A DNA stretch of 64,000 bases, from the NCBI RefSeq assembly GCF_988243305.1, contig NZ_OZ547136.1; one strand, written 5' to 3'. The first letter of the stretch is position 1; every line of letters starts with the position of its first letter. The translations under genes were made by a program, and so were the position numbers. The notes beneath the pieces were generated by a model that was given only the letters and a program-made list of their open reading frames with translations, did not search any database and was not told the DNA's origin. Below, one piece after another: positions 5,427 to 51,940 of the stretch.

Positions 5427-5642
5427 AAGCGATGTTAAAAACGAAGCGGTGTCGCTGACAAGTGAAGTTGTTTGATTATGATAACTTGATTGCAAAATAT
5501 TATTAACAATTAAAGCAATTATGTTACAGCAAAATGGATAATATTGATGTTTTCGCGGCGAGATCACAGTTTGTAAATTCTTCCCGCCGGAGTGAATGCG
5601 GTTACCTACACTCCAGATTACTGACCACTGGAGGCAGACACT

Positions 5643-11920: not shown

Positions 11921-12510
11921 TCATTCGTGATGAAAACTATTTTACTGATAAATATGAATTAACCCGCACACACTCTGAAGTGCTGGAAGCGGTGAAAGTG
12001 GTTAAACCCGGTAAAACGCTGGATCTGGGCTGTGGCAATGGTCGTAACAGTCTTTACCTGGCAGCCAATGGTTATGAAGTTGACGCATGGGATAAAAATG
12101 CCATGAGTATCGCCAACGTCGAGCGCATTAAATCCATTGAAAATCTGGATAATTTACACACCCGGGTCGTTGACCTGAATAACCTCACGTTTGATGGGCA
12201 ATACGATTTTATTCTTTCGACTGTGGTGCTGATGTTCCTTGAGGCTAAAACCATCCCAGGGCTGATTGCCAATATGCAACGTTGCACTAAACCTGGCGGT
12301 TACAACCTGATTGTGGCGGCGATGGATACCGCTGATTATCCATGTACCGTCGGCTTCCCGTTTGCCTTCAAAGAGGGAGAATTACGTCGATATTACGAAG
12401 GCTGGGAGATGGTGAAATACAATGAAGACGTCGGCGAGCTGCACCGCACCGACGCCAACGGTAATCGTATTAAACTGCGTTTCGCCACGATGCTGGCACG
12501 TAAAAAATGA
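11917..12510 (+). CDS. tehB: tellurite methyltransferase TehB (SAM-dependent)
   Basis: 197-aa ORF with SAM-binding motif [15 protein letters not shown] overlap with tehA stop. Confidence 0.92.
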
Positions 12511-36191: not shown

Positions 36192-36809
36192 ATGATTAAG
36201 GTGTATGGCGTACCCGGATGGGGCTCTACAATCAGTGAGCTGATGCTAACACTGGCTGATATTCCTTATCAGTTCGTTGATGTCAGTGGTTTTGACCACG
36301 AGGGAACCTCACGCGAGTTATTGAAAACCCTGAACCCGTTGTGTCAGATTCCGACACTGGCGCTGGAAAATGACGAGATTATGACGGAGACAGCGGCGAT
36401 TGCATTGATGGTTCTCGATCGTCGCCCGGACCTTGCGCCACCGGTTGGGCGCGCCGAACGTCAGCAGTTTCAACGGCTATTGGTCTGGCTGGTTGCTAAT
36501 GTCTATCCAACATTCACTTTCGCCGATTACCCTGAGCGTTGGGCTCCTGACGCACCCGAACAGTTAAAGAATAATGTTATTGAATATCGTAAATCGCTTT
36601 ATATCTGGCTGAATTCACAATTGACCGCTGAACCTTATGCCTTTGGCGAGCAACTAACGCTGGTGGACTGTTATCTCTGCACCATGCGCACATGGGGGCC
36701 GGGGCATGAATGGTTTCACGATAATGCGCAGAATATCAGTGCGATTGCTGAAGCTGTATGTCAGTTACCGAAATTACAAGAAGTATTAAAAAGGAATGTC
36801 ATTATTTAA
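36192..36809 (+). CDS. yncG: glutathione S-transferase homologue
   Basis: 205-aa GST-fold ORF with AGGGG upstream. Confidence 0.85.
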   Translation: MIKVYGVPGWGSTISELMLTLADIPYQFVDVSGFDHEGTSRELLKTLNPLCQIPTLALENDEIMTETAAIALMVLDRRPDLAPPVGRAERQQFQRLLVWLVANVYPTFTFADYPERWAPDAPEQLKNNVIEYRKSLYIWLNSQLTAEPYAFGEQLTLVDCYLCTMRTWGPGHEWFHDNAQNISAIAEAVCQLPKLQEVLKRNVII

Positions 36810-37054
36810 CAATAATGCCGGAGGTTAATGTTAATGAATCACTGGCGTAATTAACTGGATATCCATTTGTTTGCTATGAATAGTAATTAAAGTTGGTACA
36901 ACTATTTATATGATTGATGTAATTTCGTTTTTTATATGAAATATCAATTTAATATAATCCGAAAATAAAACATCTTTTCGCATGTAGAGAAACATGTCGA
37001 TATGATAGTGCAGTGCAGATCATGTCATCAGGGTAGGGCGGTAGCGTATTTAAT

Positions 37055-37210
37055 CAGGGAAAGATTACGCAACGCTGCTTTTTTGTATTGAACGATTCGC
37101 ATTTTATGTTTAAAAATTGCGATATTCCTTATTTCCTGAAGCTGTTTTTATTGCTTATACATGATCAAATACTCCTTACATAATTAAGGAGAACAAAATG
37201 GAACTTAATA
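37055..37210 (+). repeat. 5'-terminal remnant of an H-repeat (ISAs1-family) element
   Basis: About 155 bp near-identical to the left ends of the elements at 42289 and 46943, including the terminal inverted repeat CAGGGAAAGATTACG and the first 4 codons of the transposase (ATGGAACTTAA), then divergence. Confidence 0.8.
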
Positions 37211-37348
37211 CACGCCAACAATTTGTATTACTTAAATAGACCAGTGAAGGTACGCATCAGAACATCCGGTGAAGTGATTAATATTTCGTTGAATATTTCT
37301 CCCGATTTTTGAAACCTGCTGCTGTAGAAATTCTGAACAGGAGGAATT

Positions 37349-37633
37349 ATGCCTTTAGCAGCCAAACTCACCGACAAAGGCACCCAGCACGACGGTTATT
37401 ACGAGACCGTCATCACCGCCGGGTCATCCACCGTCTTTATCGATGGTCTTCCCGCAGCCCGTCAGGGAGATCCGCTGACGCCGCATGCTAAACCGAAGCA
37501 TCCCCCTCATCCCCGTAAAATCGCCAGAGGTTCTTCAACCGTCTTTATTGACGGCCTGCCCGCCGCCAGAAGCGGTGATGCTGTTGACTGCGGCGGCGTG
37601 GTTATTGGTGGCGGTACGGTAAATATAGGCTGA
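37349..37633 (+). CDS. PAAR-domain protein (T6SS spike tip)
   Basis: 94-aa ORF with repeated GSSTVFIDGLPAARxGD motifs (PAAR motif); strong AGGAGG RBS; 18 nt upstream of vgrG. Confidence 0.85.
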   Translation: MPLAAKLTDKGTQHDGYYETVITAGSSTVFIDGLPAARQGDPLTPHAKPKHPPHPRKIARGSSTVFIDGLPAARSGDAVDCGGVVIGGGTVNIG

Positions 37634-37651
37634 TATGTCTGAGAGGTATTT

Positions 37652-39616
37652 ATGTCCTTAAAAGGTCTTCGCTTTACGCTGGAGGTTGACGGCCAGGAGC
37701 CGGACACCTTTGCAGTGGTGAATTTCAGGTTAATCCAGAACCAGTCATATCCGTTTGTGATGAGTGTGGATGTTGCCAGCGACTCTTTTATGCAGACGGC
37801 GGAGATGCTGCTGGAGAAGAAGGCGACACTGACCATCTGGCAGGGCGCAGTGGCGCAGCGTTATGTCACCGGCGTGGTGGCGGGTTTTGGCATGCAGGAG
37901 AATAACGGCTGGCAGATGCGTTATCACCTGCGTATTGAGCCGCCGTTATGGCGGTGCGGGCTGCGGCAGAACTTTCGTATCTTCCAGCAGCAGGATATCC
38001 GGACGATATCGGCCACGTTACTGAACGAGAACGGCGTCACGGAGTGGACGCCGCTGTTTTATGAGGACCATCCGGCGCGGGAGTTCTGTGTCCAGTACGG
38101 AGAGAGCGACCTGGCGTTTCTGTCCCGGCTGTGGGCGGAGGAGGGAATTTTCTTCTTTGAGCGGTTTGCGGCGGACAGTCCGGAGCAGAAGCTGACGCTG
38201 TGCGACGATGTGGCGGGGCTGTCACAGGCGGGGGAGTTTCCGTTTAACCCGGACACATCGGCAGGAGCGGAGACGGAGTGTGTCAGTATGTTCCGTTATG
38301 AGGCGCATGTCCGCCCGTCATCGGTGCAGAGCCAGGATTACACGTTTAAGGTGCCGGACTGGCCGGGGATGTATGAGCAGCAGGGTGAGAACCTGAACGG
38401 ACAGCTGGCGCAGTATGAGATATTTGATTATCCGGGAAGGTACAAGGATGAACAGCACGGCAAGGATTTCACGCTGTACCGGATGGAGAGCCTGCGCAGT
38501 GATGCGGAAAAGGCCACAGGGCAGAGTAATTCACCGAAGCTGTGGCCGGGAACGCGGTTTACGCTGACGGGGCATCCGCAGAAGATGCTGAACCGTGAAT
38601 GGCAGGTGGTACAGAGCATACTGTCAGGAAGCCAGCCGCAGGCGCTGCACGGCAGCCAGGGGAGAGGAACCACGCTGGGCAATCAGTTAGAGGTGATACC
38701 GGCGGACCGGACGTGGCGTCCACGGCTGCAAAGCAAACCGAAGGTGGACGGGCCACAGAGCGCCATTGTCACCGGTCCTGCGGGAGAGGAAATCTTCTGC
38801 GACGAACACGGACGTGTGCGAGTGCAGTTTCACTGGGACAGGTATAACCCGGCAACGGAGGCGAGTTCGTGCTGGGTGAGGGTGTCACAGGCGTGGGCGG
38901 GGCCGGGGTTCGGTAACCTGGCGATACCGCGGGTGGGCCAGGAGGTGATTGTTGATTTCCTGAACGGCGACCCGGACCAGCCGATAATCATGGGACGGAC
39001 ATACCATGAGGACAACCGTTCACCGGGGAGTCTGCCGGGGACGAAGACGCAGATGACGATACGGTCGAAGACCTATAAAGGTAGCGGATTTAACGAGCTG
39101 CGGTTTGAAGACGCCACCAGTAATGAGCAGGTGTATATCCATGCGCAGAAGAACATGGATACGGAGGTGCTCAACGACCGGACAACGGATGTGAAACATG
39201 ACCATACGGAAACCATCGGTAACAACCAGAAGATAACGGTGGTGAAGGGCCAGACGGTGAATGTGGGGAGCAAAAAGGAAGGTGGTCATGACCAGAAAGT
39301 GACAGTGGCGAATGACCAGACCATTACGGTACAAAACGATCAGCGGCTGGATGTTACCCACGATCGTCACAAGGATGTAGGGAACGATCAAATCAGTAAG
39401 ATAATAGGAAAAGATACCGAAGAAGTCGTGAAATCCCAGGATATTAAAGTTGGAGAAGATTACAGCCTGACAGTTACCAACAGCCTCACCATTAAAGTCG
39501 GTGAATGCTTACTGAAAATGAATAAGGACGGTACTATCATTCTCAATGGTAAAAGTATCCAGATTGAAGGAAAAGATAAAATCAATATTTTCGGCGCAGA
39601 TATTGATCTGGATTAA
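37652..39616 (+). CDS. vgrG: VgrG spike protein (T6SS)
   Basis: 654-aa ORF; characteristic VgrG N-terminus (MSLKGLRFTLEVDG...FAVVNFRL...) and C-terminal Val/Gly-rich beta-helical repeats (VKGQTVNVG..., TVQNDQRLDV...). Confidence 0.9.
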   Translation: MSLKGLRFTLEVDGQEPDTFAVVNFRLIQNQSYPFVMSVDVASDSFMQTAEMLLEKKATLTIWQGAVAQRYVTGVVAGFGMQENNGWQMRYHLRIEPPLWRCGLRQNFRIFQQQDIRTISATLLNENGVTEWTPLFYEDHPAREFCVQYGESDLAFLSRLWAEEGIFFFERFAADSPEQKLTLCDDVAGLSQAGEFPFNPDTSAGAETECVSMFRYEAHVRPSSVQSQDYTFKVPDWPGMYEQQGENLNGQLAQYEIFDYPGRYKDEQHGKDFTLYRMESLRSDAEKATGQSNSPKLWPGTRFTLTGHPQKMLNREWQVVQSILSGSQPQALHGSQGRGTTLGNQLEVIPADRTWRPRLQSKPKVDGPQSAIVTGPAGEEIFCDEHGRVRVQFHWDRYNPATEASSCWVRVSQAWAGPGFGNLAIPRVGQEVIVDFLNGDPDQPIIMGRTYHEDNRSPGSLPGTKTQMTIRSKTYKGSGFNELRFEDATSNEQVYIHAQKNMDTEVLNDRTTDVKHDHTETIGNNQKITVVKGQTVNVGSKKEGGHDQKVTVANDQTITVQNDQRLDVTHDRHKDVGNDQISKIIGKDTEEVVKSQDIKVGEDYSLTVTNSLTIKVGECLLKMNKDGTIILNGKSIQIEGKDKINIFGADIDLD

Positions 39617-39631
39617 TCTGGAGAAATTAAC

Positions 39632-40573
39632 ATGAATATTGAAAATGAAACTGGTTTTCCTCACTTTCAGTTCGAAAAAGTGGGATATTATGGTGAGTTA
39701 TTCACAGTAGTGGTAGTTAATCAGACATTTGATTTTTCATATAGCGGCGGTCTCTGTCTGATTGCGGATGAGCAGCGACTGCCACTGATGACCGACTCCT
39801 GGTACGGCGAACCGGAAAGCAGCAGTCTTAAAACAGCAACCGATTTGGTTTGCAGAAAAGTCAGGGCAGATGTTTTATTAAATGGACACGCATGGCATGC
39901 CACCGGGGAAACCACTCGATGGCAGGCCAGTTTACAGGTGGGTAATCTTCAGCGCCAATTTGATATATGTGGCCCTTGCCAATGGCAATATATATCTAAC
40001 CGCTGGCAACTTAGCGAACCTGAATTAACTGATCGGGTACTGTTACGCCATGAACTGGCGTCAGCCAGTGAATTTAATCCTGTAGGCATTGTTATTCCCT
40101 CCCTGATAACGCTTGGCGATAAATCGCCCTGTCCAGCTCCACAGTTATCTGCCTCACCAGGAGCTATTTGCCGTAGCTGGCCTTCACGATTGCGCTATGC
40201 CAGAGGTTTTACAGAACAGTGGCAAAAGACTGTTCAACCTTTTTATCCAGATGAATTCGATTTTGCATTCATGAATTATTCTCCACCAGAACAACAATAC
40301 GATGGTTATTTAATTGGCAATGAAAAAATTATATTGAACGGCCTGTTACCTTCTAAAATGGAACAAACTTGTTTCCTTCCAGATATTAGACTATTGGCGT
40401 ATTTGTTTTACCGCTCTGATAAAAACGTAGAACTGCGCCCATTGTTGGCTGACACACTGACCATCCACACAGACGATGAGCAACTAACACTACTCTGGCG
40501 CTTAACGCTCCCCGTGGATTCTCTTCCACAACGTATTGTTTTGACGACGGAGCAGAGGGGACCTCATGGCTGA
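39632..40573 (+). CDS. candidate T6SS adaptor/chaperone (DUF2169-like by position and size)
   Basis: 313-aa ORF between vgrG and a PAAR-like effector, overlapping the effector start by 8 nt; family assignment rests on synteny, not on a recognised motif. Confidence 0.5.
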   Translation: MNIENETGFPHFQFEKVGYYGELFTVVVVNQTFDFSYSGGLCLIADEQRLPLMTDSWYGEPESSSLKTATDLVCRKVRADVLLNGHAWHATGETTRWQASLQVGNLQRQFDICGPCQWQYISNRWQLSEPELTDRVLLRHELASASEFNPVGIVIPSLITLGDKSPCPAPQLSASPGAICRSWPSRLRYARGFTEQWQKTVQPFYPDEFDFAFMNYSPPEQQYDGYLIGNEKIILNGLLPSKMEQTCFLPDIRLLAYLFYRSDKNVELRPLLADTLTIHTDDEQLTLLWRLTLPVDSLPQRIVLTTEQRGPHG

Positions 40574-41699
40574 AAATCATATTGGTTGTCGTGAATCGAA
40601 GTACGTTGCGATATGTATTGCGCCTGATGTCTGCAAGGTTGGTGATGCGATAGTGCCGTTTGACAGCTTTCAGAACCTGACACATGAGAAAATTTATATC
40701 AGCAATGTCAGGGCACGGGGCAATCCAATACTGACCGTGGACTGTATTATTGCAGGTACACGAAGTAATGCCGGGAAAGGTGTCAGTTCTGGCACCAGTC
40801 TGGGCAGCGGTGACTGCCGGATACTGACAGGCGTGGATCATATAAAGTGCAAGGGAAAGCCGGTAGCCAGGAATCTTTCGCTGGTTGCCATGAATAATGA
40901 TAATACTGTTGGAAAACTGTATACCCAGACAAACCCGCCAAATCAGATAATACCTGTTAAAGAATCATCGCTTTGGGCCAAGTATCTGGAACTGCAAATA
41001 CAACAGCAAGAGTTTGAGCTTGAGTCCAAAAAGCAAGAAGCAGATGCAATGATAGGATTAGGCAAGGCATTTATTAATGGCTGGTATATGTTGGGTGCAT
41101 TGATTGCCAAAGGTCAGATGCAAAATGACATTGCCCAAATGGAAAGTAATATTGCTCTGGCGAGAGGGTTGGGGATGGATACCCAAATTATGGAGCGGGC
41201 GAATGAGACCAACAGGGAGGTAATGGAAACTATTGATCCTAGAGAGCCATTGTTGAAACCTGCCAATGAAACCCAAGCAATGGCGATGGAGGTTGAGCCA
41301 TGGCTGGAACTTATGACCGGGGTTGGAGCACTGGTGAAAGGTTTGGTCAAGTTTTCAGCGAAGTTTGCAATAAAATCGGTTGGCAGAATGGGGAGGAGCG
41401 GTGCTAAAATTGTGCTGGATGCAAATGGATTGCCTATTCCTGTTCCTCCAAGCGTTGGCGCTGCGGGAAGAGTTCCGAGAGTATTACAAACTGGAGGTAA
41501 TACTCTTGAGGCAAGAACTGCCAGGGAGTTAAATGAATTTTTTGGTAAAAATATTAACAGGAGAGAATGGGGGAAAGCTTTAGAAAAGTTGAAAAAAGAT
41601 TTACGCTTACGAGGTGATCACCATGGTCGAATACTTGATAATGGTGATTATATTGATGACTCAGGAAATATTTTAGGAAACATAGAAGATTATTTATGA
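40566..41699 (+). CDS. candidate T6SS effector with N-terminal PAAR-like (DUF4150-type) domain and unassigned C-terminal domain
   Basis: 377-aa ORF; N-terminal Cys-containing module (VAICIAPDVCKVGDAIVPF...GKPVARNLSLVAMNNDNTVG); helical linker; divergent C-terminal ~110 aa; AT-rich. Confidence 0.6.
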   Translation: MAENHIGCRESKYVAICIAPDVCKVGDAIVPFDSFQNLTHEKIYISNVRARGNPILTVDCIIAGTRSNAGKGVSSGTSLGSGDCRILTGVDHIKCKGKPVARNLSLVAMNNDNTVGKLYTQTNPPNQIIPVKESSLWAKYLELQIQQQEFELESKKQEADAMIGLGKAFINGWYMLGALIAKGQMQNDIAQMESNIALARGLGMDTQIMERANETNREVMETIDPREPLLKPANETQAMAMEVEPWLELMTGVGALVKGLVKFSAKFAIKSVGRMGRSGAKIVLDANGLPIPVPPSVGAAGRVPRVLQTGGNTLEARTARELNEFFGKNINRREWGKALEKLKKDLRLRGDHHGRILDNGDYIDDSGNILGNIEDYL

Positions 41700-42175
41700 T
41701 TAAGAATATACAATCAAGGCTTACCCCGATATCTCATGAATATCCAAGTTGTGATGAGTGCTATGCTAGCCTCTTGATTTACACAGGTAATACTCACCCT
41801 AATGAAATAAGTATTCACTTAGAACTTGAGCCAACATCAATTAATATAAAAGGAGATGAAATTATTACTCTATCGGGAAAGAAAAGATATGCAAAAAATT
41901 CATATTGGATGCTCTCGTCAGAAAATCTAGTGAACTCGAAAGATATTCGAGAACATCTGGATTGGCTACTTCACAAACTTGGACCTAAATCATCAAATAT
42001 TGCAAAATTGCAAGCATTAGAAAATATTTCAATGGGTATTGACTGTACCTGGAGATCATTGAATTGGCACGGTGGGCCAACTTTATGGCCTGAGCAGATG
42101 AAAATAATGGCTAATCTTGGATTGGAGTGTTCATTTGATATTTATTTCGTCGGCAATGAAGATGGCAATCTTTAA
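41696..42175 (+). CDS. candidate cognate immunity protein (cytoplasmic)
   Basis: 159-aa ORF, ATGA overlap with effector stop, no signal peptide, AT-rich; role inferred from position only. Confidence 0.45.
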   Translation: MIKNIQSRLTPISHEYPSCDECYASLLIYTGNTHPNEISIHLELEPTSINIKGDEIITLSGKKRYAKNSYWMLSSENLVNSKDIREHLDWLLHKLGPKSSNIAKLQALENISMGIDCTWRSLNWHGGPTLWPEQMKIMANLGLECSFDIYFVGNEDGNL

Positions 42176-42288
42176 TTATTGCTCGCAAATTTTTAATAAA
42201 CAAATAGCACAATAAAATACTCGGTATCTATGGTATATACCTAATAAACAAGGGCAGGGAAAGATCATCAGAAGTACACTTTTTGTAC

Positions 42289-43580
42289 CAGGGAAAGATC
42301 ACGTAACGCTGCTTTTTTGTACTAAATAATTCGCATTTTATGTTTAAAAATTGAGATATTCCTCATTACCTGAAGCTGTTTTTTATTGAGTATACATGAT
42401 CAAATACTCCTTACATAATTAAGGAGAACACAATGGAACTTAAAAAATTGATGGAACATATTTCTATTATCCCCGATTACAGACAAGCCTGGAAAGTGGA
42501 GCATAAATTGTCGGATATTCTACTGTTGACTATTTGTGCCGTTATTTCTGGTGCAGAAGGCTGGGAAGATATAGAGGATTTTGGGGAAACACATCTCGAT
42601 TTTTTAAAACAATACGGTTATTTTGAAAATGGTATTCCTGTTCACGATACCATCGCCAGAGTTGTATCCTGTATCAGTCCTGCAAAATTTCACGAGTGCT
42701 TTATTAACTGGATGCGAGATTGCCATACTTCAGATGATAAAGACGTCATCACAATTGATGGAAAAACGCTCCGGCACTCTTATGACAAGAGTCGCCGCAG
42801 GGGAGCGATTCATGTCATTAGTGCGTTCTCAACAATGCACAGCCTGGTCATCGGACAGATCAAGACGGATGAGAAATCCAATGAGATTACAGCTATCCCA
42901 GAACTTCTTAACATGCTGGATATTAAAGGAAAAATCATCACAACTGATGCGATGGGTTGCCAGAAAGATATTGCAGAGAAGATACAAAAACAGGGAGGTG
43001 ATTATTTATTCGCTGTAAAAGGAAACCAGGGGCGGCTAAATAAAGCCTTCGAGGAAAAATTTCCGCTGAAAGAATTAAATAATCCAGAGCATGACAGTTA
43101 CGCAATTAGTGAAAAGAGTCACGGCAGAGAAGAAATCCGTCTTCACATTGTTTGCGATGTCCCTGATGAACTTATTGATTTCACGTTTGAATGGAAAGGT
43201 CTGAAGAAATTATGCGTGACAGTCTCCTTTCGGTCAATAATAGCAGAACAAAAGAAAGAGCCAGAAATGACGGTCAGATATTATATCAGTTCTGCTGATT
43301 TAACCGCAGAGAAGTTCGCCACAGCAATCCGAAACCACTGGCACGTGGAGAATAAGCTGCACTGGCGTCTGGACGTGGTAATGAATGAAGACGACTGCAA
43401 AATAAGAAGAGGAAATGCCGCAGAATTATTTTCAGGGATACGGCACATCGCTATTAATATTTTAACGAATGATAAGGTATTCAAGGCAGGGTTAAGATGT
43501 AAGATGCGAAAAGCAGCCATGGACAGAAACTACCTGGCGTCAGTCCTTGCTGGGAGCGGGCTTTCGTAATCTTGCCCTGG
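42289..43580 (+). mobile_element. H-repeat element (ISAs1-family), intact copy
   Basis: About 1.3 kb bounded by imperfect terminal inverted repeats (left CCAGGGAAAGATCACG, right CGTAATCTTGCCCTGG) enclosing one 378-aa transposase ORF. Confidence 0.8.
42433..43569 (+). CDS. H-repeat-associated protein / ISAs1-family transposase (YdcC/YhhI-like)
   Basis: 378-aa [35 protein letters not shown]... matching recalled E. coli H-repeat proteins. Confidence 0.88.
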
Positions 43581-43916
43581 CAGGAGCATAAGACGACGGG
43601 GAACCATGTCAGCCTGGTGGAGGGAAAGCACAGTCTGGAGGTGAAAGGCGATCTGGCGAGGAAGGTGAGTGGCACGCTGGGGATAAAGGTGGACGGGGAT
43701 ATCGTGCTGGAGAGCTGCAGCCGGATAAGCCTGAAGGTGGGCGGTTCGTTTATCGTTATTCAGTCGGGCGGTGTGGATATAGTGGGGCCGAAGATAAATC
43801 TTAATGGTGGGGGGAGTCCGGGGACACCGGTACCGACACTGCAACCCACTGTCCTGAACACTTTAGTCACTAATGATACGGATAGTAATACTGATGATGA
43901 TATCGGTAATGATTAG
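43581..43916 (+). pseudogene. vgrG 3'-terminal remnant
   Basis: GC-rich frame encoding a VgrG C-terminal beta-helix tail (VSLVEGKHSLEVKGDLARKVSGTLGIKVDGDIVLES...GGVDIVGPKINLNGGGSPG) begins directly at the H-repeat right end with no ATG; table call uses a TTG inside the IR. Confidence 0.8.
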
Positions 43917-44087
43917 ACCAGAGTGAAGTTCATGTTCTCGTAGCGGGATAATCATTCAGATAAAGATAACGGATGACGGTAGTAATAATAATACAATAAT
44001 ACTGTGATTTTCTGCTTTCTAAGCAGAGATGCTCTGTGAATGAATAATTCATACTCGTTACATGTTTTATAATCTTAATAAGGACTA

Positions 44088-46166
44088 TTGATAATGATAA
44101 TCAGCCCTCCAATATTGCATGCGCATATAGACACTGAAAAAGACTCTGACTGGGTAAACAGAATGATGTCTGTTGATCCAGAGAGAAATTTCCCAATGAA
44201 TAGCGGTCGTTCTTGGCATGGTGGAGTTCATTTGAACGGCAATCTGTCAGAGACTGTTAGGTGTATTGCCGATGGGAAGGTTATTTCAATACGCCAGCCA
44301 GAACCAGCGAAAAATACAGTTCCCCCGTTAAATTATAACGGAGTTACGGATAAAGGCTATGTTCTGATAAAACATGAAACAGAAATCGGTAGTGGAGAAG
44401 AGGGTAAAATCGTCTATTACTCATTATATATGCACCTGAGAAGCATTGACAGTAATGTGCAGCCGGGAAACACGCTATACCGGAAAGAACCGGTTGGTGC
44501 AGCAGGGATGGTGGACGGACAGAACGCCTTTCATTTTCAGATTTTTTGTGATGATGAAAACATTCAGAAAATCACAGGAAGAATATCACCGGAAACAGAC
44601 CTGAATAAAGATGGACGAACTAATGTGGTTTACGGTGATAGTCATTTTTATCTCCCTACCGGAACACCGATTTATGGGGACATGCCGGAAGAAAACTCGC
44701 TTGCGAACAACAGTCCGGTACAAAGAACCAGCGTGCCATTGTATGTCACAATGAGTTTTGATAAAGGCAATTGTACGATGGTGACGCGTCAGCAGCATGA
44801 AGTGCTGAGTGATTCCTATACTGAAGTAGGTTCTCCCTTGATTAATGCTGATGGTAAGGATTATGAATACAATCTCTATTCCTACGCGCTGCAACTCTAT
44901 CCGAAAAGCCCAAGTGCCGGTTATGAGATGCTGCGTTTTGGTCGGGTTGTTAATACAGAATATGAAGAATTAGTCCCGGCGGATGCGCCGCTGTGGAGAA
45001 CAATCAATACGCCACAGGGTAAAGGCGTTGTTAACTTAGGGGCGAGAGATATCAGGGTTTACAGCGACGGTGATTTTCCACACTGGACAGGGTGGAAACT
45101 GGTGAACGATGATGCGGACACCAACAGCCAGTGCAATTCACCAACAATCCTGTGTACAACCCGCAATGACCTAAGTCGGATGATTTGTCATTTTCCGCTA
45201 GAATGGGACAGCGCCACCGTGGAATCACGGTTTGAGTGGCTGAAATCACCCAATGACGTATTGAGTAAGCCGATGACAGAGCCTGACCTGGATTTGCTGA
45301 TAGAACACTGTAAGGCGCTTTGTTTGGTAGAGAATCCGTTACCTGCCAGGCGTGTATGGCATTTTGATCCCAGGCAGTTTATTGCACATTTCAGGAAATG
45401 TGGATGGTTAGGAGAAAATGATATTATAAGTGTGGTAAGACGTTATCAAAATGCTTATCCCATGACATCAGAACTTACAAGACCATTAAGTAAAGACACT
45501 CTAATTGAGCGGATTACTAGCCAAGGACAAAATAGCAGTGGTGAGATGATAAGACCTGCAGGGTTGAAAAATGAACTGTCAAAGTCACTAAGGAAGTACT
45601 TAATTACAACCCCATTGCGGATTGCGCATTATTTCGGTCAGATGGCGAGAGAAACAGGCAGATTTTCGTCTTTTATAGAGAATGGTGATTTGAGTTATTT
45701 TGATATGTATGAGCCAGGAACAGAACAGGGACTTAAGCTTGGAAATAATGTTGTTGGTGATGGTGCAAGATTTAAAGGCAGAGGTACCATACATCTAACT
45801 GGTCGTGAGAATTATAGAAATTATGGAAAGTATAGAAATCCGTCAGATGATGATTTTTTTACTACAGGACCCAATAACCAACTCCCAGTTGAAAATGCCT
45901 ATTTTTCTTGCGATGCCGGGGGATACTTTTGGGCAAGTAAGCAAAAATACATAATGGTAAGCCATCGATTGACACCTAGTGGTAGTTTAGGCGTTAATTA
46001 TTGGGCGGATAAAGGATGTAGTTTGTCACATGCCAGAGAAGTTACACGGCGAATAAACCCAGCAGCAGATGGCTTCGATTTAGTACGTTGGCCAGCATTT
46101 GAGCATTCTTGGTATGTATTGAATGATGAAATAACACCTCCACTTAATTACATAAGGATTGTTTAA
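44088..46166 (+). CDS. predicted two-domain peptidoglycan hydrolase: M23/LytM-like N-terminal domain plus GH19-like (lysozyme/chitinase-family) C-terminal domain; candidate T6SS cargo effector
   Basis: 692-aa AT-rich ORF. N-terminal region follows the M23 motif order (WHGGVHL, ADGKVISI, GYVLIKHE, YYSLYMHL, NAFHFQIF). C-terminal region carries GH19 hallmarks (YFGQMARETGRF and KGRGTIHLTGRENYRNYG). Start codon uncertain. Confidence 0.6.
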   Translation: MIMIISPPILHAHIDTEKDSDWVNRMMSVDPERNFPMNSGRSWHGGVHLNGNLSETVRCIADGKVISIRQPEPAKNTVPPLNYNGVTDKGYVLIKHETEIGSGEEGKIVYYSLYMHLRSIDSNVQPGNTLYRKEPVGAAGMVDGQNAFHFQIFCDDENIQKITGRISPETDLNKDGRTNVVYGDSHFYLPTGTPIYGDMPEENSLANNSPVQRTSVPLYVTMSFDKGNCTMVTRQQHEVLSDSYTEVGSPLINADGKDYEYNLYSYALQLYPKSPSAGYEMLRFGRVVNTEYEELVPADAPLWRTINTPQGKGVVNLGARDIRVYSDGDFPHWTGWKLVNDDADTNSQCNSPTILCTTRNDLSRMICHFPLEWDSATVESRFEWLKSPNDVLSKPMTEPDLDLLIEHCKALCLVENPLPARRVWHFDPRQFIAHFRKCGWLGENDIISVVRRYQNAYPMTSELTRPLSKDTLIERITSQGQNSSGEMIRPAGLKNELSKSLRKYLITTPLRIAHYFGQMARETGRFSSFIENGDLSYFDMYEPGTEQGLKLGNNVVGDGARFKGRGTIHLTGRENYRNYGKYRNPSDDDFFTTGPNNQLPVENAYFSCDAGGYFWASKQKYIMVSHRLTPSGSLGVNYWADKGCSLSHAREVTRRINPAADGFDLVRWPAFEHSWYVLNDEITPPLNYIRIV

Positions 46167-46170
46167 AACA

Positions 46171-46674
46171 ATGAATTTTAAAAAAACAATAATCACTTCG
46201 GTAGGTTTGATATTTATTTCATTCTCTTTTGTGGCAGAGTGCTCTCAACTCAAAAATTTGAATAATTACTCAGTGATGCTTTGTGGAAAAGTGTCAAGTA
46301 ATATCCTTGATGATATTGGTGGTTATAAAGAAAGAGATAAAAAATCCGAAATGGTAGATTTACTTATATTAATTAGTAATGACGAGCCTATCGGTGTTTC
46401 TGAGACCAAAGTGATTTCTAATGGTAAAATATATTTTAAGGGGGAAAGTACTATGAACTTGGATGCCTCATTCATTATGACAATAAATGGTGGAGTTCAT
46501 ACTGACACTGTCACTTATATATCAAAGAAGAATAAAATTATCGGGGGCTACTTTTATAATAATGAGAGTAAAACTGATAAGCTTAAGGAAGTATATATCT
46601 CAAACACAGGAACTGTATATCATATAAATATTGAAAGTGTCAGCGATGATAAATGTCTTGATAAATTTAAGTAA
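46171..46674 (+). CDS. candidate periplasmic immunity protein (signal peptide)
   Basis: 167-aa ORF from ATG 46171 (MNFKKTIITSVGLIFISFSFVAECSQ...), 4 nt after the hydrolase stop; cleavable Sec-type signal; very AT-rich. Confidence 0.45.
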   Translation: MNFKKTIITSVGLIFISFSFVAECSQLKNLNNYSVMLCGKVSSNILDDIGGYKERDKKSEMVDLLILISNDEPIGVSETKVISNGKIYFKGESTMNLDASFIMTINGGVHTDTVTYISKKNKIIGGYFYNNESKTDKLKEVYISNTGTVYHINIESVSDDKCLDKFK

Positions 46675-46942
46675 CGATAAGGCAAGGATGATTGATTGGG
46701 TTTAGTTAAGTTTCGAGAACAAATTTCCGCGGCAGAGAGTATAAATGTAGGGGCAAGAATGCTAAAATCGTGAAGTGCACCACAACTATAATTCCAGTTT
46801 ACTTTGTTTATTTGATTGTAATTTAACCATTAAATGATTAGGTTTTTTAGAAAAGGACGTCTGATGAATGTTTAAATTAATTTTGAATACATTTCAATTA
46901 TTTTGTTGTATGTTGGCAAGGTCAAATAAGACATAATTTAAT

Positions 46943-47645
46943 GGCAGGGAAAGATCATCGTAAGTACACTTTTTGTACTAAATAATTTGCATTTTATGTT
47001 TAAAAATTGAGATATTCCTCATCACCTGAAGCTGTTTTTTATTACTTATATATGATCAAATACTCCTTACATAAATAAGGAGAACAAAATGGAACTTAAA
47101 AAATTGATGGAACATATTTCTATTATCCCCGATTACAGACAAGCCTGGAAAGTGGAACATAAATTATCGGATATTCTACTGTTGACTATTTGTGCTGTTA
47201 TTTCTGGTGCAGAAGGATGGGAAGATATAGAGGATTTTGGGGAAACACATCTCGATTTTTTGAAGCAATATTGTGATTTTGATAATGGTATTCCTGTTCA
47301 CGATACCATTGCCAGAGTTGTATCCTGTATCAGTCCTGAAAAATTTCATGAGTGCTTTATTAACTGGATGCTTGACTGCCATTCTTCAGATGATAAAGAC
47401 GTCATTGCAATTGATGGAAAAACGCTCCGGTACTCTTATGACAAGAGTCGTCGCAAGGGAGCGATTCACGTTATTAGTGTGTTCTCAATAATGCACAGTC
47501 AGATTCCTTGGAAGATCAAGACGAATGAAAAAAACAATGAGATTACAGCTGTTTCTGAATTTCTTAACATAATGGGTATTAAAGGAAAAATAATTGCACC
47601 GATCCAATGTGATACCAGAAAGACATCGCTAAGAAGATAGCTATA
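46943..47645 (+). mobile_element. H-repeat element, 3'-truncated and degenerate copy
   Basis: Left end and first ~550 bp of transposase gene near-identical to the intact copy, then frameshifted (..[20 protein letters not shown]) and lost about 50 nt upstream of the cyclase gene 3' end. Confidence 0.8.
47089..47640 (+). pseudogene. truncated H-repeat transposase
   Basis: 183-aa ORF identical in N-terminus to the 378-aa transposase but terminating early after indels. Confidence 0.8.
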
Positions 47646-47713
47646 GACAATTATTACCCTCCGTCAGCCCTTGTTAAGCGAGGAGAGACGTAATCTGTCC
47701 AGTCCCCTAATGC

Positions 47714-48811
47714 TTATAAAGCCCATCGATTTCGCCCACTTTCTTTCGCCCGGTATAACGCAGCGTCGGCATCTGAAATAATTTGTTCAGCCGTTTTTGC
47801 GGGAGCAGAACAGGTAATCCCCTGACTAACCGTAACGAATGCATTAACAGCAGATGCCTGATGTGGGATAGCTGCCAGTTTAAGTTCTTGCTTCACTCTG
47901 GCTGCTACCGTCTTTGCTTCCGGCAATGTTGCATTAAAAAGTATGATGGCAAACTCTTCGCCACCATAACGGACAACAACATCCTCCGACTGGCGAGTTG
48001 AACGCTGTAGAGCGTCGGCAACTTGTATTAGACAACGATCCCCAGCAGGATGCCCGTAAGTGTCGTTGTAACGTTTAAAAAAATCGACATCCAGCATAAT
48101 AAGAGCAAATGACCCGCCGTTATCCATCGCGTCGTGTAAGATACTGTTCATTGCACGTCGGTTTGCTATCCCAGTTAAAGGATCACGATGTGCTAATGCA
48201 TCAAGGCGATTAATTAACTGGTTGTTATAACTGTTTTGTACCCATGCTTCTTCAAACCAACGTAACAAAATGAGTCGCCCACCATATAGCGCCAGTGAAA
48301 AAATACACCATACAACAGCAAAATGAATATTGATCTGTTGATTAAGCATAAGACTCGCTATTGGAGTGGTGAACCATAAGGGAATGACAAATGCGAGCAA
48401 TGATGGGGTATGGAAATAAAGTGCGACAACGCCACTAAGCATTAATAATACACATAGTGGATAAGCAAACTGCAGCGTCCAGTACGCAATAAAGTGATAA
48501 CTACACCATGACCATAGCAGGCTCAGGGCAACTAATAGCACCTGGATAGGTAATGTTTTTTGCCGAGGGATGAGTAGTAAACCACTGCAAATCAGCAGAA
48601 TACCCGTTGCAGATATATCAATAGAATGTATAAGGCTTTTTTCATTTAACCAGGGTGGAGTAAGGTCATTAAACAGAACACGGCGCAGCAAAATTATCAA
48701 TGCAAAACTGACATTGATAAAAGCAAACCATGGCAAACTAATTGTCATGCCGCGGATAACCATATCGCGGCGTGTTTGCCACGAGTGATGCGTTTTTCTT
48801 CTTTCAGCCAT
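47714..48811 (-). CDS. membrane-anchored diguanylate cyclase (GGDEF domain)
   Basis: 365-aa ORF: N-terminal multi-TM region and C-terminal GGDEF domain with intact RYGGEEF active-site motif; start codon not resolved. Confidence 0.8.
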   Translation of the reverse strand: MAERRKTHHSWQTRRDMVIRGMTISLPWFAFINVSFALIILLRRVLFNDLTPPWLNEKSLIHSIDISATGILLICSGLLLIPRQKTLPIQVLLVALSLLWSWCSYHFIAYWTLQFAYPLCVLLMLSGVVALYFHTPSLLAFVIPLWFTTPIASLMLNQQINIHFAVVWCIFSLALYGGRLILLRWFEEAWVQNSYNNQLINRLDALAHRDPLTGIANRRAMNSILHDAMDNGGSFALIMLDVDFFKRYNDTYGHPAGDRCLIQVADALQRSTRQSEDVVVRYGGEEFAIILFNATLPEAKTVAARVKQELKLAAIPHQASAVNAFVTVSQGITCSAPAKTAEQIISDADAALYRAKESGRNRWAL

Positions 48812-48857
48812 TTTTTAGCCAAATAAGGGCAGGAGACCTGCCCGATACAGAGTAAAA

Positions 48858-50834
48858 TTATGGTGTCACTATATTGAACCAAAATTCAAAATTATCCATA
48901 TAACCTAACAGCTCGTTGAGCTTTTCCGCATTGCCGGTAATTTTGACATCACCTTTGTCCGTGGCTTCTTTCAGCGTCTCTTCTTTCAGTACAATTTTGT
49001 TCAATACATCACGAGATAGAGAGATAGTGGCATCAGCCTCCGAAGCCTCTACACCAGCGGTATGATTGAGAACACCATTTTCAAGCTCTACCTTATAGGT
49101 GCCGCCATCTTCACCAAAATCGAAATTCAACACGGCTTTGGCATCTGCCGCTTTCTCACCATTAATATGGACGGCAAGATAATCAAAGAACATTTCTGGC
49201 GTCATTGCACGCACAGTGTCAGGGCTGGCAGTATTTGGTGTTGGTAATTTTTGTACGCCGTTACGCAATTCCTGTGCACCAGTGAGATAGAAATTACGCC
49301 ACGGCCCAGATTCAGCCTGATAGCCTAACTGCTCAAGCGCATCAGCTTCCAGATTTCTCGCTGCCTGGTTGTTTGGATCCGCAAACACCACCTTACTAAC
49401 AACTTGGGCAACCCAGCGGAAATTACCCTGGTCATAATCCTGTTTGGCTTTCTGTAAAATGGCATCAGCACCGCCCATATACTCGACGAATTTTTTTGCG
49501 CCTTCTTCTGGCGGTAGTTCATCAAGCGTCGCGGGGTTACCATCAAACCAGCCGAGATAAAGCACGTAAGTTGCTTTCACGTCATGACTTACCGAACCGT
49601 AATAGCCGCGATTCGCCCAGGTGTTAGCCAGTGAAGAGGGCAGTTTAAAGTTTGCGGCAATTTCATCACGGGTCATCCCTTGATTAGCCATGCGCAGAGT
49701 TTGATCATTGATGTAACGATACAAATCACGCTGGCTTTTAAGCAGTTTGACCACGTTATCGTTGCCCCAGGTTGGCCAGTGATGTTGAGCGAGAATAATC
49801 TCGGCTTTATCACCCCACAAATTGAGAGCTTCATTAATATATTTTGACCACGGCAGCGGTTGGCGAATTTTAGCCCCACGCAGCGAATAGGTGTTATGAA
49901 GGGTGTGCGTGACATCTTCAGCGGTTTCGATCAGTTTCTTTTCTTCAATAAACCACAGCATTTCAGAAGGCGCTTCAGAACCTGGCGCCATCAGGAAATC
50001 ATAAGTCAACCCGTCAATAGTTTCTTTTTGTCCGGTTTTGGTGATGTAGTTAGTAGGAGCAATCAACGTGACTGTTCCTGCTGAAGTAGTCGTTCCCAGT
50101 CCAGCCCCCACCTGGCCTTTAACATCAGGTTTCAATAAGTTGCCATACATATAACTGGCTCGTCGGCTCATCACATTGCCAGCCATAATATTTTCGGAAA
50201 CGGCTTCCTCCAAAAATCCGGCTGGCGCATAGATTTTAACTTTGCCTGATTTAACGTCAGCTTCATCAATTACGCCACGAACACCACCGTAGTGATCGAC
50301 ATGACTGTGTGTATAGATAACCGCCACTACCGGTTTTTTGCCGCGATTTTTGTAATAGAGATCCATACCCACTTTGGCTGTTTCTGCTGAAACAAGGGGA
50401 TCAACGACGGTAATACCCTCTTTGCCTTCAATGATGGTCATATTTGATAGATCGAGATTGCGAATCTGATAGACACCTTCAGTTACTTCGAATAACCCGC
50501 TGATATTTATCAGTTGCGCCTGACGCCATAAACTCGGATTCACCGTATCAGGGGCTTTATCGCCTTCTTTGATAAAAGCGTAATGTTGTGGATCCCAGAT
50601 AACATTCCCTTGTTCGCCCTTAATCACGTCTTGAGGGATAGGGGCAATAAAACCTTTATGGGCATCAGTAAAGTCAGTGTTATCGGCAAACGGCAACTGG
50701 TTGGAGAGTAAATTGTTTGCTTGTTGCGTGGCTGCGGTGGCGTCTTTAGGAGCTTCCGCCGCGAGGAGAGGTAAAGAACTGGTGGTGAATAATCCCGTTA
50801 TTAGCAGACTTTTAACGATATGATTAAGCTGCAT
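48858..50834 (-). CDS. alkyl/aryl-sulfatase, metallo-beta-lactamase fold (YjcS/SdsA1-like)
   Basis: 658-aa ORF with signal peptide (MQLNHIVKSLLITGLFTTSSLPLLAA) and MBL metal-binding motif THSHVDHYGG. Confidence 0.8.
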   Translation of the reverse strand: MQLNHIVKSLLITGLFTTSSLPLLAAEAPKDATAATQQANNLLSNQLPFADNTDFTDAHKGFIAPIPQDVIKGEQGNVIWDPQHYAFIKEGDKAPDTVNPSLWRQAQLINISGLFEVTEGVYQIRNLDLSNMTIIEGKEGITVVDPLVSAETAKVGMDLYYKNRGKKPVVAVIYTHSHVDHYGGVRGVIDEADVKSGKVKIYAPAGFLEEAVSENIMAGNVMSRRASYMYGNLLKPDVKGQVGAGLGTTTSAGTVTLIAPTNYITKTGQKETIDGLTYDFLMAPGSEAPSEMLWFIEEKKLIETAEDVTHTLHNTYSLRGAKIRQPLPWSKYINEALNLWGDKAEIILAQHHWPTWGNDNVVKLLKSQRDLYRYINDQTLRMANQGMTRDEIAANFKLPSSLANTWANRGYYGSVSHDVKATYVLYLGWFDGNPATLDELPPEEGAKKFVEYMGGADAILQKAKQDYDQGNFRWVAQVVSKVVFADPNNQAARNLEADALEQLGYQAESGPWRNFYLTGAQELRNGVQKLPTPNTASPDTVRAMTPEMFFDYLAVHINGEKAADAKAVLNFDFGEDGGTYKVELENGVLNHTAGVEASEADATISLSRDVLNKIVLKEETLKEATDKGDVKITGNAEKLNELLGYMDNFEFWFNIVTP

Positions 50835-51139
50835 CTTAAGCGTCTCCAGAATGGATTTTTATTGGGGGTAATTACGGATGAAAATTTTTAGTGAGGGCAA
50901 GAATAACTATAATGGGCGTTAACAAATTGGCAAGCCGGGAAATTGATGTTTTCTTAATGGCATGTTGGCGAAGAATATATTCTGCAAGTTAACGTTTTCA
51001 TTGGCGCTTTATTTAAAAGTGTGTAGTACAAATATGTACAATTTCAAGTAGGCATTATTGCCGTAAAAACGCATTACCGGACACACGACATTCACAACGT
51101 GTGTTAATTTTACTGACATCTTTCAAAAGGAGCACAATC

Positions 51140-51367
51140 ATGCCGCACATAGACATTAAATGTTTTCCGCGTGAACTGGACGAACAACAAAAAGCAGCAC
51201 TTGCTGCAGATATTACCGACGTTATTATTCGCCATCTGAACAGTAAAGATAGCTCGATAAGCATTTCTCTACAGCAGATTCAACCAGAATCTTGGCAAGC
51301 TATCTGGGATGCCGAAATCGCGCCCCAAATGGAGGCTTTGATAAAGAAACCCGGTTACAGCATGTAA
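51140..51367 (+). CDS. pptA: tautomerase PptA (4-oxalocrotonate tautomerase family)
   Basis: ORF from ATG 51140 ([13 protein letters not shown]...) with AAGGAG upstream; N-terminal Pro typical of tautomerases. Confidence 0.85.
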
Positions 51368-51370
51368 TGC

Positions 51371-51940
51371 TTAACCTGCCGTAACACGCTTGCCGCTGGT
51401 AACAAACGTGCCAGCACCTAAATGATGCAACGTATTGAGTTTGTCATCATCAAACTGCCAGCGGCCTTCGACAAATACTCGTGCGTCTGCCGCTGCAGAT
51501 ACCACTTCGCCAAATAGCGTATCGTATTTTTCTTGCGCGGAAGTTGCAGGTAGCAGGCGACACTCCATCCACGCCAGACATTTTTCCTCGACCAGCGGCA
51601 AACCAAGCACCGGGCCTCTCACTACCGGAATGCCGTAGCAATTAAATTTATCTTCTTCACGACCCGACACACTTCCCACCGCCCACGTCCAGTTAGTTGC
51701 TGCAACGCCCGGGATAACGATGCCAAACTTACCATTACGTTCAATCAACTCCCTGGTCCATGTCGATTTATCTACCACAATCGCCACGCGTGGCGGTTCA
51801 AACTCCACCGGCATTGACCAGGCTGCTGCCATAATGTTACGCCGCTGGGATTGCTCATCGAAACTGGTGATCATGACAGTTGGGCCATGATTTAACAGAC
51901 GGCTGGCATGGTGTAATTCGACGGGAATGAATTGGCTCAC
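51371..51940 (-). CDS. yddH: flavin reductase-like protein YddH
   Basis: 189-aa ORF matching recalled YddH. Confidence 0.85.
   Translation of the reverse strand: MSQFIPVELHHASRLLNHGPTVMITSFDEQSQRRNIMAAAWSMPVEFEPPRVAIVVDKSTWTRELIERNGKFGIVIPGVAATNWTWAVGSVSGREEDKFNCYGIPVVRGPVLGLPLVEEKCLAWMECRLLPATSAQEKYDTLFGEVVSAAADARVFVEGRWQFDDDKLNTLHHLGAGTFVTSGKRVTAG

Follow-up and report, generated by a model that had tools for sequence, protein, structure and literature searches.

A diguanylate cyclase-alkylsulfatase gene pair between yncG and pptA of Escherichia coli, probably an old chromosomal unit and lost from most strains

Two neighbouring genes, one for a GGDEF protein and one for a sulfatase, stand between a remnant of mobile DNA and pptA in the 64,000-nucleotide stretch of contig NZ_OZ547136.1 (NCBI RefSeq assembly GCF_988243305.1) that was analysed here as a whole (hereafter, the window), and the locus raises the question whether this pair came in with the mobile DNA or belongs to the older chromosome of E. 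coli, and whether the two products act together. A preliminary description, made from the sequence alone, had placed here open reading frames of 365 and 658 aa with the catalytic motifs RYGGEEF and THSHVDHYGG. Both frames are present (for coordinates see Table 1), and both motifs were found intact in the translations. Its statement that K-12 carries neither gene was also correct, for in the K-12-type strain DH5a the ISAs1 gene ydcC is followed directly by pptA.

Table 1. Features at and around the dgcY-alkylsulfatase locus, in window positions.
Feature	Position	Strand	Basis
yncG (glutathione S-transferase family), ancestral left neighbour of dgcY	36192..36809	+	comparison with island-free genomes
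VgrG/ISAs1 island, about 10.9 kb	36810..47721		lies exactly between the convergent yncG and dgcY
Internally deleted ISAs1 copy	46945..47721	+	alignment to full copies
Truncated ISAs1 transposase ORF	47089..47640	+	first 142 of 314 profile positions
dgcY (MASE5 sensor and GGDEF cyclase)	47714..48811	-	ORF, profile matches
GC-rich hairpin GGGCAGG-TCT-CCTGCCC, then TTATTT	48827..48843	-	between sulfatase stop and dgcY ATG
Alkyl/aryl-sulfatase, periplasmic (predicted), type III, metallo-beta-lactamase fold	48858..50834	-	ORF, Pfam, homologues
Sulfatase stub (first 70 bp of the gene) fused to intact ISAs1 end, WB61 type, 84 genomes	50765..50834	-	junction comparison
Best sigma-70-like promoter match, TTGCCA-16-TATAGT, 10/12	50906..50933	-	upstream of sulfatase; consensus match only
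K-12-type deletion endpoint, ISAs1 terminus ...CCCTGG joined directly	51051		junction comparison
O104:H4-type deletion endpoint, ISAs1 truncated at about base 917 joined	51090		junction comparison
pptA tautomerase, right neighbour, divergent from sulfatase	51140..51367	+	profile/annotation
AVS0282-type deletion endpoint within pptA, ISAs1 terminus joined; yncG lost too	51311		junction comparison

The preliminary description had also spoken of a strain-specific cyclase, but the cyclase is no new one: according to the SalmoNet2 paper (PMC9426430; preprint bioRxiv 10.1101/2021.12.20.473597), strains SMS-3-5 and CE10 are those in which yreP, 'dgcY in E. coli', was first reported side by side with the alkylsulfatase EcSMS35_1714. 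The SMS-3-5 locus, yncG-GGDEF-sulfatase-pptA, agrees with the window in site and gene order; at the DNA level the window is about 97% identical to genomes that lack the island and carry the same two proteins as SMS-3-5, and its 349-aa product shares a 90% cluster with the SMS-3-5 protein. It differs from the SMS-3-5 type in the VgrG/ISAs1 island at the 3' end of dgcY, and in the C-terminus of DgcY, ...RWAL against ...RWEK. DgcY of SMS-3-5 and CE10 is reportedly to be credited to Povolotsky and Hengge in 2016. None of the sources checked gives the name DgcY to this very protein, and our assignment of the window cyclase to DgcY of SMS-3-5 rests on the secondary citation together with the locus comparison. 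The pair is already known; the direction of change, namely loss, the census of 5,426 genomes and the adjacency across genera are the additions made here. DgcX, which is likewise missing from K-12 (PMC4287979), was considered as the identity of the window gene and rejected. Like DgcY, the E. coli proteins DgcX, DgcT and CdgI carry a membrane-embedded sensor followed by GGDEF, but theirs is a MASE4 and that of DgcY a MASE5; moreover, DgcX has an RxxD I-site and is associated with lambdoid prophages at attB. The window gene is without RxxD, lies at another locus, and is chromosomal and probably old.

The mobile DNA next to dgcY had been called a truncated H-repeat, a description that is only partly apt. 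The transposase ORF does match no more than profile positions 1-142 of 314, but the element is an internally deleted ISAs1 copy, of which the left 695 bp are about 90% identical to full copies; next to them comes a right end that has diverged and that adjoins the stop codon of dgcY (local alignment score of 34, against a mean of 16.7, standard deviation of 3.1 and maximum of 30 after shuffling). The window copy is not a complete ISAs1, which would have the full transposase and both termini. In island-free genomes, window positions 36809 and 47722 are only about 8 bp apart.

A survey of complete E. coli genomes detected both genes in 438 of 5,426 (8%), as expected from the earlier suggestion that they are strain-variable. 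The window-type junction was found in 344 genomes, and the island-free order yncG-dgcY-sulfatase-pptA in 87. The non-carriers displayed at least four distinct right-hand deletion endpoints (window positions 50765, 51051, 51090 and 51311), and at three of these the junction with the ISAs1 terminus CCCTGG is exact; the number of independent losses is inferred from these junction types alone. Since junction counts are inflated where nearby pieces are joined, the K-12-type count of 2,375 includes the 84 WB61-type genomes, and that of the third junction, 2,890, includes both the K-12-type and the WB61-type genomes; by subtraction, and not by direct count, about 2,290 genomes are of the K-12 type and about 515 of the AVS0282 type.

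The proposal that the pair is accessory and linked to the H-repeat/Rhs island implies horizontal arrival with or beside this island, K-12 representing the original empty site. The pair indeed adjoins mobile DNA, is found in only 8% of the complete genomes, and has a lower G+C content (0.40-0.48) than the pptA-nhoA side (0.50-0.53), which might reflect horizontal transfer at an earlier time. Against the accessory reading, however, the 87 island-free genomes keep the pair flush against yncG; the K-12 site is not empty but carries an intact ISAs1 end fused to window position 51051; the endpoints of other strains differ from it and include a stub of the sulfatase gene; and Citrobacter, E. albertii and E. 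whittamii have the pair or one member of it at this locus too. The accessory reading is therefore largely refuted and is left with a very small probability. Because of the island-free carriers, the relatives with the same locus and the deletion scars, the variability is mainly loss and not gain: K-12 and most E. coli have lost the pair by repeated deletions, mostly anchored at the adjacent ISAs1 end. It is highly probable that the pair in the window is the known dgcY-alkylsulfatase unit of the E. coli pangenome, old and chromosomal, and not a cargo of the island.

The cyclase consists of Pfam MASE5 (PF17178; residues 25-206, profile positions 2-192 of 192, E 7.5e-44) and Pfam GGDEF (PF00990; residues 207-362, positions 1-161 of 161, E 1.3e-48), and scores 157.9 bits with the TIGR00254 GGDEF profile against a cut-off of 37.4. 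Sequence analysis indicated six hydrophobic segments, and this even helix count together with the basic N-terminus is consistent with both termini lying in the cytoplasm; of MASE5, only three loops would then face the periplasm, one of 20 residues and two of about 3 each. RefSeq starts the protein of near-identical strains at M17 (window position 48763), giving 349 aa, but the 365-aa start is plausible because homologues from other genera have a similar N-terminal extension, with which residues 1-16 can be aligned. Alignment of the cyclase segment LDVDFFKRYNDTYGHPAGD with IDVDYFKSYNDTFGHVAGD of WspR indicated the presence of the substrate- and metal-binding residues (DxD...KxYND...GHxxGD). As to the I-site, the preliminary description had seen no canonical RxxD, and rightly so: five residues upstream of GG[DE]EF the cyclase has QSED in place of RxxD, and the WspR alignment sets Q274 at the position of the arginine (QSED-VVVRY-GGEEF). 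The homologues have Q, S or T at this position, the pattern throughout the family being R273-x-x-x-D277.

Such a degenerate I-site could be taken as a sign that the protein is catalytically dead, or a mere scaffold or receptor like CdgI. This we consider improbable, since the GGEEF motif (RYGGEEF at residues 281-287) is intact, the DVDxFKxYND and GHxAGD stretches match those of the active cyclase WspR, and the Pfam match spans the whole GGDEF domain. Furthermore, 96 of the 365 residues, including every residue of GGEEF, are invariant over 19 homologues down to 48% identity, as are the substrate- and metal-binding stretches upstream of it. It is established for GGDEF enzymes that loss of RxxD abolishes feedback inhibition while catalysis is kept. 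With a full domain, GG[DE]EF and the substrate- and metal-binding residues, DgcY has the sequence features of a competent diguanylate cyclase and is predicted to be one, placed in the inner membrane. A literature search detected no experimental study of DgcY, including no published c-di-GMP assay, and PADLOC gave no defence-system match for either the cyclase or the sulfatase.

The sulfatase matches Pfam Lactamase_B (E 1.1e-16), Alkyl_sulf_dimr (1.2e-62) and the SCP2-like Alkyl_sulf_C (1.6e-43), with the HxHxDH motif, part of THSHVDHYGG, starting at residue 176. On inspection of the sequence, its N-terminus, MQLNHIVKSLLITGLFTTSSLPLLA followed by AEA, resembles a signal peptide of the Sec type. 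Seven zinc ligands, H176, H178, D180, H181, E287, E306 and H351, were mapped to residues 192, 194, 196, 197, 303, 322 and 367 of SdsAP (numbering of PMC5426288) by a constant offset of 16, an ungapped alignment being assumed. Among solved structures the closest is PDB 7TL5 (1187 bits, 79.5% identity over 630 residues), a close homologue entitled 'Lactamase_B domain-containing protein' for which no paper was found, and the other solved relatives are SdsAP (4NUR), YjcS (4PDX), Pisa1 (2YHE) and SdsA1 of P. aeruginosa (2CFU). With SdsA1, SdsAP, YjcS and Pisa1 the window protein has in common the three-domain architecture, the predicted secretion and the zinc ligands HxHxDH plus Glu, Glu and His. 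K-12 yjcS, at another locus and with 49% protein identity, is a paralogue and not an allele. By these features the protein is predicted to be a secreted alkylsulfatase that belongs with SdsA1, SdsAP and YjcS, adopts the metallo-beta-lactamase fold and binds zinc at two sites; that it hydrolyses alkyl sulfate esters is inferred from its identity to 7TL5 and its homology to the characterised SdsAP and YjcS.

The two genes are probably co-regulated, as judged from the gene order. Between them lies a hairpin (Table 1) that resembles a terminator or attenuator; Enterobacter hormaechei and E. asburiae have a hairpin here as well, but with another sequence. Followed by a T-run, the hairpin could terminate transcripts ahead of dgcY, a point against simple co-transcription, and it would set the expression of the cyclase below that of the sulfatase. 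An Rfam search of positions 46800-51500 at E<=1 gave nothing, and therefore no riboswitch is indicated in this region.

For the relatives, we searched genome contigs with a profile of the family alignment, which gave at least eight full-length MASE5 loci among the matches listed, none of these listed matches being from another Escherichia species; further loci came from exact-protein look-ups. At the same locus as in E. coli, both genes are present in E. whittamii, only the sulfatase in E. albertii and Citrobacter sedlakii, and only the cyclase in a taxon at Citrobacter-like distance. Elsewhere, the genes form a tandem flanked by tynA and feaB in E. hormaechei, Lelliottia and Leclercia, are also in tandem in E. 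asburiae, and are adjacent but divergent in the ydbK-ttcA context of Salmonella. The linkage is not obligate: in Hafnia, Mangrovibacter and E. cloacae the cyclase stands alone, and at one tynA-feaB locus it lacks the sulfatase and has a ParE toxin pair in the sulfatase slot. Between genera, the sulfatase is about 85% and the cyclase about 50% conserved.

Adjacency at several chromosomal sites across genera suggests a functional link of cyclase and sulfatase. From family knowledge, the sulfatase would cleave SDS and other primary alkyl sulfate esters in the periplasm, yielding alcohol and sulfate, and DgcY would dimerise and convert GTP to c-di-GMP upon stimulation of its membrane sensor, the c-di-GMP favouring production of biofilm matrix over motility. 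Both may form a single sensory unit, in which the lipid-embedded MASE5 would detect alkyl sulfate esters or the released alcohol and pass the signal to c-di-GMP; the inputs would be detergents, sulfated lipids of dietary or host origin, or the alcohol that the periplasmic sulfatase sets free and that partitions into the membrane. We put this forward tentatively, as a possibility with clearly less than an even chance. The view that common descent alone makes the genes neighbours, the sulfatase scavenging sulfur or carbon and the cyclase sensing an unrelated membrane signal without any coupling of function, comes close to an even chance without quite reaching it: several taxa have just one of the two genes, a hairpin like that of a terminator lies between them, and their conservation across genera is unequal, but the adjacency is seen in three contexts, yncG-pptA in Escherichia, tynA-feaB in Enterobacter, Lelliottia and Leclercia, and ydbK-ttcA in Salmonella, and in two orientations, and therefore chance linkage without selection is unlikely.

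A coupling of another kind is known from YfiR-YfiN, a module of periplasmic partner and membrane cyclase, and in P. aeruginosa SiaD mediates SDS-induced aggregation, linking detergent exposure to c-di-GMP. The sulfatase might likewise control DgcY by direct contact, as in YfiR-YfiN or IsmP-ImcA, and not through substrate or product. The conserved adjacency of the genes is in line with this idea, as is the precedent of ImcA/IsmP (PDB 8WCN), and among solved structures it is ImcA that best matches the GGDEF part; in IsmP-ImcA, too, a periplasmic protein is encoded beside a membrane diguanylate cyclase (PMC10904736). The sensor parts of IsmP-ImcA, YfiR-YfiN and SiaD, however, have no homology to the window pair and the likeness is conceptual only, the predicted MASE5 is almost unexposed to the periplasm, and many taxa have the cyclase without the sulfatase; control by direct contact is thus very improbable.

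DgcY is one of the few diguanylate cyclases by which strains of E. coli differ, which makes it relevant to c-di-GMP biology. Its carriers may control biofilm formation otherwise than K-12 does, a possibility already raised in the literature, and the current understanding stays unchanged unless coupling of cyclase and sulfatase is experimentally shown. If true, the sensory unit proposed above would provide the first signal for MASE5, and could explain why the pair has been kept together at three chromosomal sites of Enterobacteriaceae, including those of invasive Salmonella serovars. The adjacency of cyclase and sulfatase across genera offers in this way a concrete hypothesis for the signal of MASE5.

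The alkylsulfatase gene and dgcY (yreP), which encodes a MASE5-GGDEF cyclase, were identified as two minus-strand ORFs of 658 and 365 aa, in exact agreement with the coordinates of the preliminary description. The pair had been treated as new, but it is the already known dgcY-alkylsulfatase pair, whose first description, with the alkylsulfatase gene as EcSMS35_1714, is traced by the SalmoNet2 paper to SMS-3-5 and CE10; E. coli SMS-3-5 carries at the same locus yncG, a GGDEF protein, an alkyl/aryl-sulfatase and pptA in this order, and the 349-aa cyclase of the window falls into one 90% cluster together with the SMS-3-5 protein. The abstract of Povolotsky and Hengge is said to add 'two membrane-associated DGCs (DgcX and DgcY)' to the K-12 set. 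DgcX, which is the best known of the cyclases that K-12 lacks, was rejected because it carries MASE4 and RxxD and travels with prophages at attB (PMC4287979, PMC10459773). In Salmonella, the cyclase and alkylsulfatase genes have a common regulatory region, and the pair is found mostly in typhoidal and extraintestinal serovars (SalmoNet2, PMC9426430; bioRxiv 10.1101/2021.12.20.473597).

Features of the locus and classes of junction in complete E. coli genomes (window coordinates; for deletion types, the endpoint)
Feature or junction	Position	Strand	Genomes	Remarks
VgrG gene	37652-39616			TIGR03361, 606 bits
Full ISAs1	42289-43581			within island
692-aa ORF	44088-46166			weak Peptidase_M23 match, E 3e-4; 3' end overlapped by 171-aa ORF
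Truncated ISAs1 transposase	47089-47640	+		model positions 1-142 of 314
dgcY ORF	47714-48811	-		365 aa
GC-rich hairpin	48827-48843			directly 3' of sulfatase stop
Sulfatase ORF	48858-50834	-		658 aa
pptA	51140-51367			right flank of pair
Island-free yncG-dgcY junction			87	pair intact
Window-type junction			344	ISAs1 remnant joined to dgcY; pair intact
WB61 type	~50765		84	intact ISAs1 end joined to 70-bp sulfatase stub
K-12 type	51051		~2,290	ISAs1 end fused upstream of pptA; 2,375 including the 84 of WB61 type
O104:H4 type	51090			ISAs1 cut short near base 917; fusion 50 bp ahead of pptA
AVS0282 type	51311		~515	ISAs1 end fused within pptA, yncG also lost; count by subtraction from an inflated count

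The distribution of the pair was surveyed among 5,426 complete E. coli genomes, and junction-specific queries gave the classes listed in the table. Both genes were present in 438 genomes at 97-99% identity, and some match was found in 528, confirming the anticipated strain variability; K-12 indeed carries the ISAs1 end fused at 51051 in place of the pair. The proposal of an island-linked accessory pair is contradicted, however, by the 87 genomes that carry the pair without the island and by the outgroup loci. The complete genome closest to the pair of the window shows 99.0% DNA identity; the exact sulfatase sequence is recorded from a single contig, and the exact 349-aa cyclase from hundreds.

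Three of the four types of deletion keep an intact IS terminus (...CCCTGG) that runs straight into chromosomal sequence, at distances that differ between the types. IS-mediated adjacent deletion yields nested deletions from one fixed IS end, and the pair would have been deleted by this mechanism from the end of ISAs1; if recombination between two IS copies had taken place instead, identical junctions would be expected. The variability of the pair in E. coli appears, from this comparison of junctions, to represent mainly loss and not gain, and the outgroups agree with an old origin: the order is pptA-sulfatase-dgcY in E. whittamii, pptA-sulfatase and next an Rhs gene in E. albertii, where the cyclase has left no remnant, yddH-sulfatase-yncG in Citrobacter sedlakii, and yddH-cyclase-yncG in metagenomic contigs at Citrobacter-like distance. 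The sole hint of foreign origin is the low G+C content of the pair (0.40-0.48 within 47500-51000, against 0.50-0.53 for the adjoining pptA-yddH-nhoA), and such an acquisition would predate the splits of the outgroups.

In the island-free genomes (HS4, 702/18 and SMS-3-5; position 11992/11993 of the island-free genome L002), yncG and dgcY are convergent with abutting stop codons and no intergenic base, and by comparison window positions 36810-47721 represent an insertion of 10.9 kb. Because DgcY ends with ...RWEK in the island-free genomes and with ...RWAL in the island-bearing genomes (window 47714-47722), the island boundary falls at or within the final two codons of dgcY. The 82 bp from the truncation point to the dgcY stop align with the right end of the full ISAs1 at a score of 34 (500 shuffles gave a mean of 16.7, sd 3.1 and a maximum of 30), and the ISAs1 remnant is an internally deleted copy, not one truncated at its end. 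The island contains, besides this remnant, the VgrG gene, several ORFs without family, the full ISAs1 and the 692-aa ORF, which could form a type VI effector-immunity pair with the 171-aa ORF. Three island ORFs in the stretch 37652-46674 gave no match in NCBIfam. By eye, the C-terminal GRGTIHLTGRENY of the 692-aa ORF looks like a lysozyme/chitinase motif.

DgcY consists of MASE5 (Pfam; residues 25-206, E 7.5e-44, profile positions 2-192 of 192) and a GGDEF domain (residues 207-362, E 1.3e-48, positions 1-161 of 161). It matches TIGR00254 with 157.9 bits (cut-off 37.4), and no named E. coli equivalog model scored above its own cut-off in the NCBIfam search. Hydropathy scanning indicated six hydrophobic segments (around 24-42, 63-81, 88-108, 113-133, 138-156 and 163-183), connected by a single loop of 20 residues and otherwise by loops of 3-4 residues. 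Since the number of helices is even, the N-terminus is basic (6 K/R in 23 residues) and the loops are short, the protein fits an N-in/C-in topology with a sensor predicted to be almost wholly buried in the membrane. The RefSeq start of E. coli DgcY is M17, giving 349 aa, and the longer 365-aa start may be the real one; the 16 codons before M17 (48763-48811) align with N-terminal extensions of homologues in other genera, most of which keep one tryptophan and one arginine of residues 1-16. In an Escherichia-like contig (L007, 2307-3410, compared with window 48896-48305), DNA identity is about 95% for the sulfatase, 69-79% for the MASE5-coding half and 86-96% for the GGDEF half, and this dip points to a sensor part that is mosaic or fast-evolving relative to its neighbours.

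The active site was predicted to be intact, and alignment to WspR and ImcA showed that LDVDFFKRYNDTYGHPAGD...RYGGEEF, including the upstream stretch, agrees with the residues of active cyclases. The I-site slot, five residues before GGEEF, is R-S-S-D in WspR, R-P-L-D in ImcA and Q-S-E-D in DgcY, the arginine of DgcY being located one position before the canonical slot. An alignment of 19 homologues with identities as low as 48% shows R273 and D277 in every sequence and always Q, S or T in the canonical arginine slot, so that the doubt raised earlier about the I-site was right and holds family-wide; judged from this alignment, the DgcY family lacks the classical RxxD feedback site.

The sulfatase carries the Pfam domains Lactamase_B, Alkyl_sulf_dimr and Alkyl_sulf_C, behind an N-terminus resembling a Sec signal peptide, and its HxHxDH is located at residue 176. 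The zinc ligands of SdsAP, His192/194, Asp196, His197, Glu303, Glu322 and His367 (PMC5426288), correspond at a constant offset to H176, H178, D180, H181, E287, E306 and H351. The solved structure 7TL5 shares 79.5% identity with the protein, and K-12 yjcS is a paralogue with 49% identity at another locus.

The adjacency of cyclase and sulfatase recurs in three chromosomal contexts without being obligate. In Escherichia the two genes are in tandem and flanked by yncG and pptA; in E. hormaechei, Lelliottia jeotgali and Leclercia adecarboxylata they are likewise in tandem, with tynA and feaB as neighbours. In Salmonella enterica (subsp. indica and subsp. enterica) they diverge, flanked by the ydbK side and ttcA, and in E. 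asburiae they are again in tandem. They are 5.6 kb apart in Shimwellia, and the cyclase stands without a neighbouring sulfatase in Hafnia, Mangrovibacter, E. cloacae DSM 26481 and Aeromonas. Between genera, the sulfatase is conserved at about 85% but the cyclase at about 50%. In a metagenomic tynA-feaB locus (L108), a small gene and a ParE-toxin gene (5370-5892) occupy the usual sulfatase slot, directly 5' of the MASE5 cyclase. Two cyclase-like pieces (6262-6330 and 6488-6556 of the E. hormaechei locus L102; 23 codons, 74% identity) located 3' of the cyclase could be either a small repeat or what is left of a duplication.

The hairpin behind the sulfatase gene is followed by TTATTT in the window and TTTTTT in HS4, and a hairpin of other sequence is present in the equivalent place in E. 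hormaechei and E. asburiae. Because the dgcY ATG lies at most about 16 nt beyond the hairpin, a gap into which a promoter would not fit, dgcY probably relies for its expression on partial read-through or on a promoter within the sulfatase gene. No Rfam family matched within 46800-51500 at E<=1, and no PADLOC defence model matched DgcY or the sulfatase.

From knowledge of the families, the exported sulfatase would convert alkyl sulfate esters to alcohol and sulfate, and DgcY in the inner membrane would make c-di-GMP without classical product inhibition, in response to a signal located within the membrane or at its surface. Four polar residues that are invariant, R43, D65, S153 and N157, all mark predicted periplasmic helix ends, a placement that would suit, but does not prove, the sensing of an amphiphile in the outer leaflet. 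The proposal that DgcY takes the sulfatase's substrate or product as its signal is tentative and rather unlikely.
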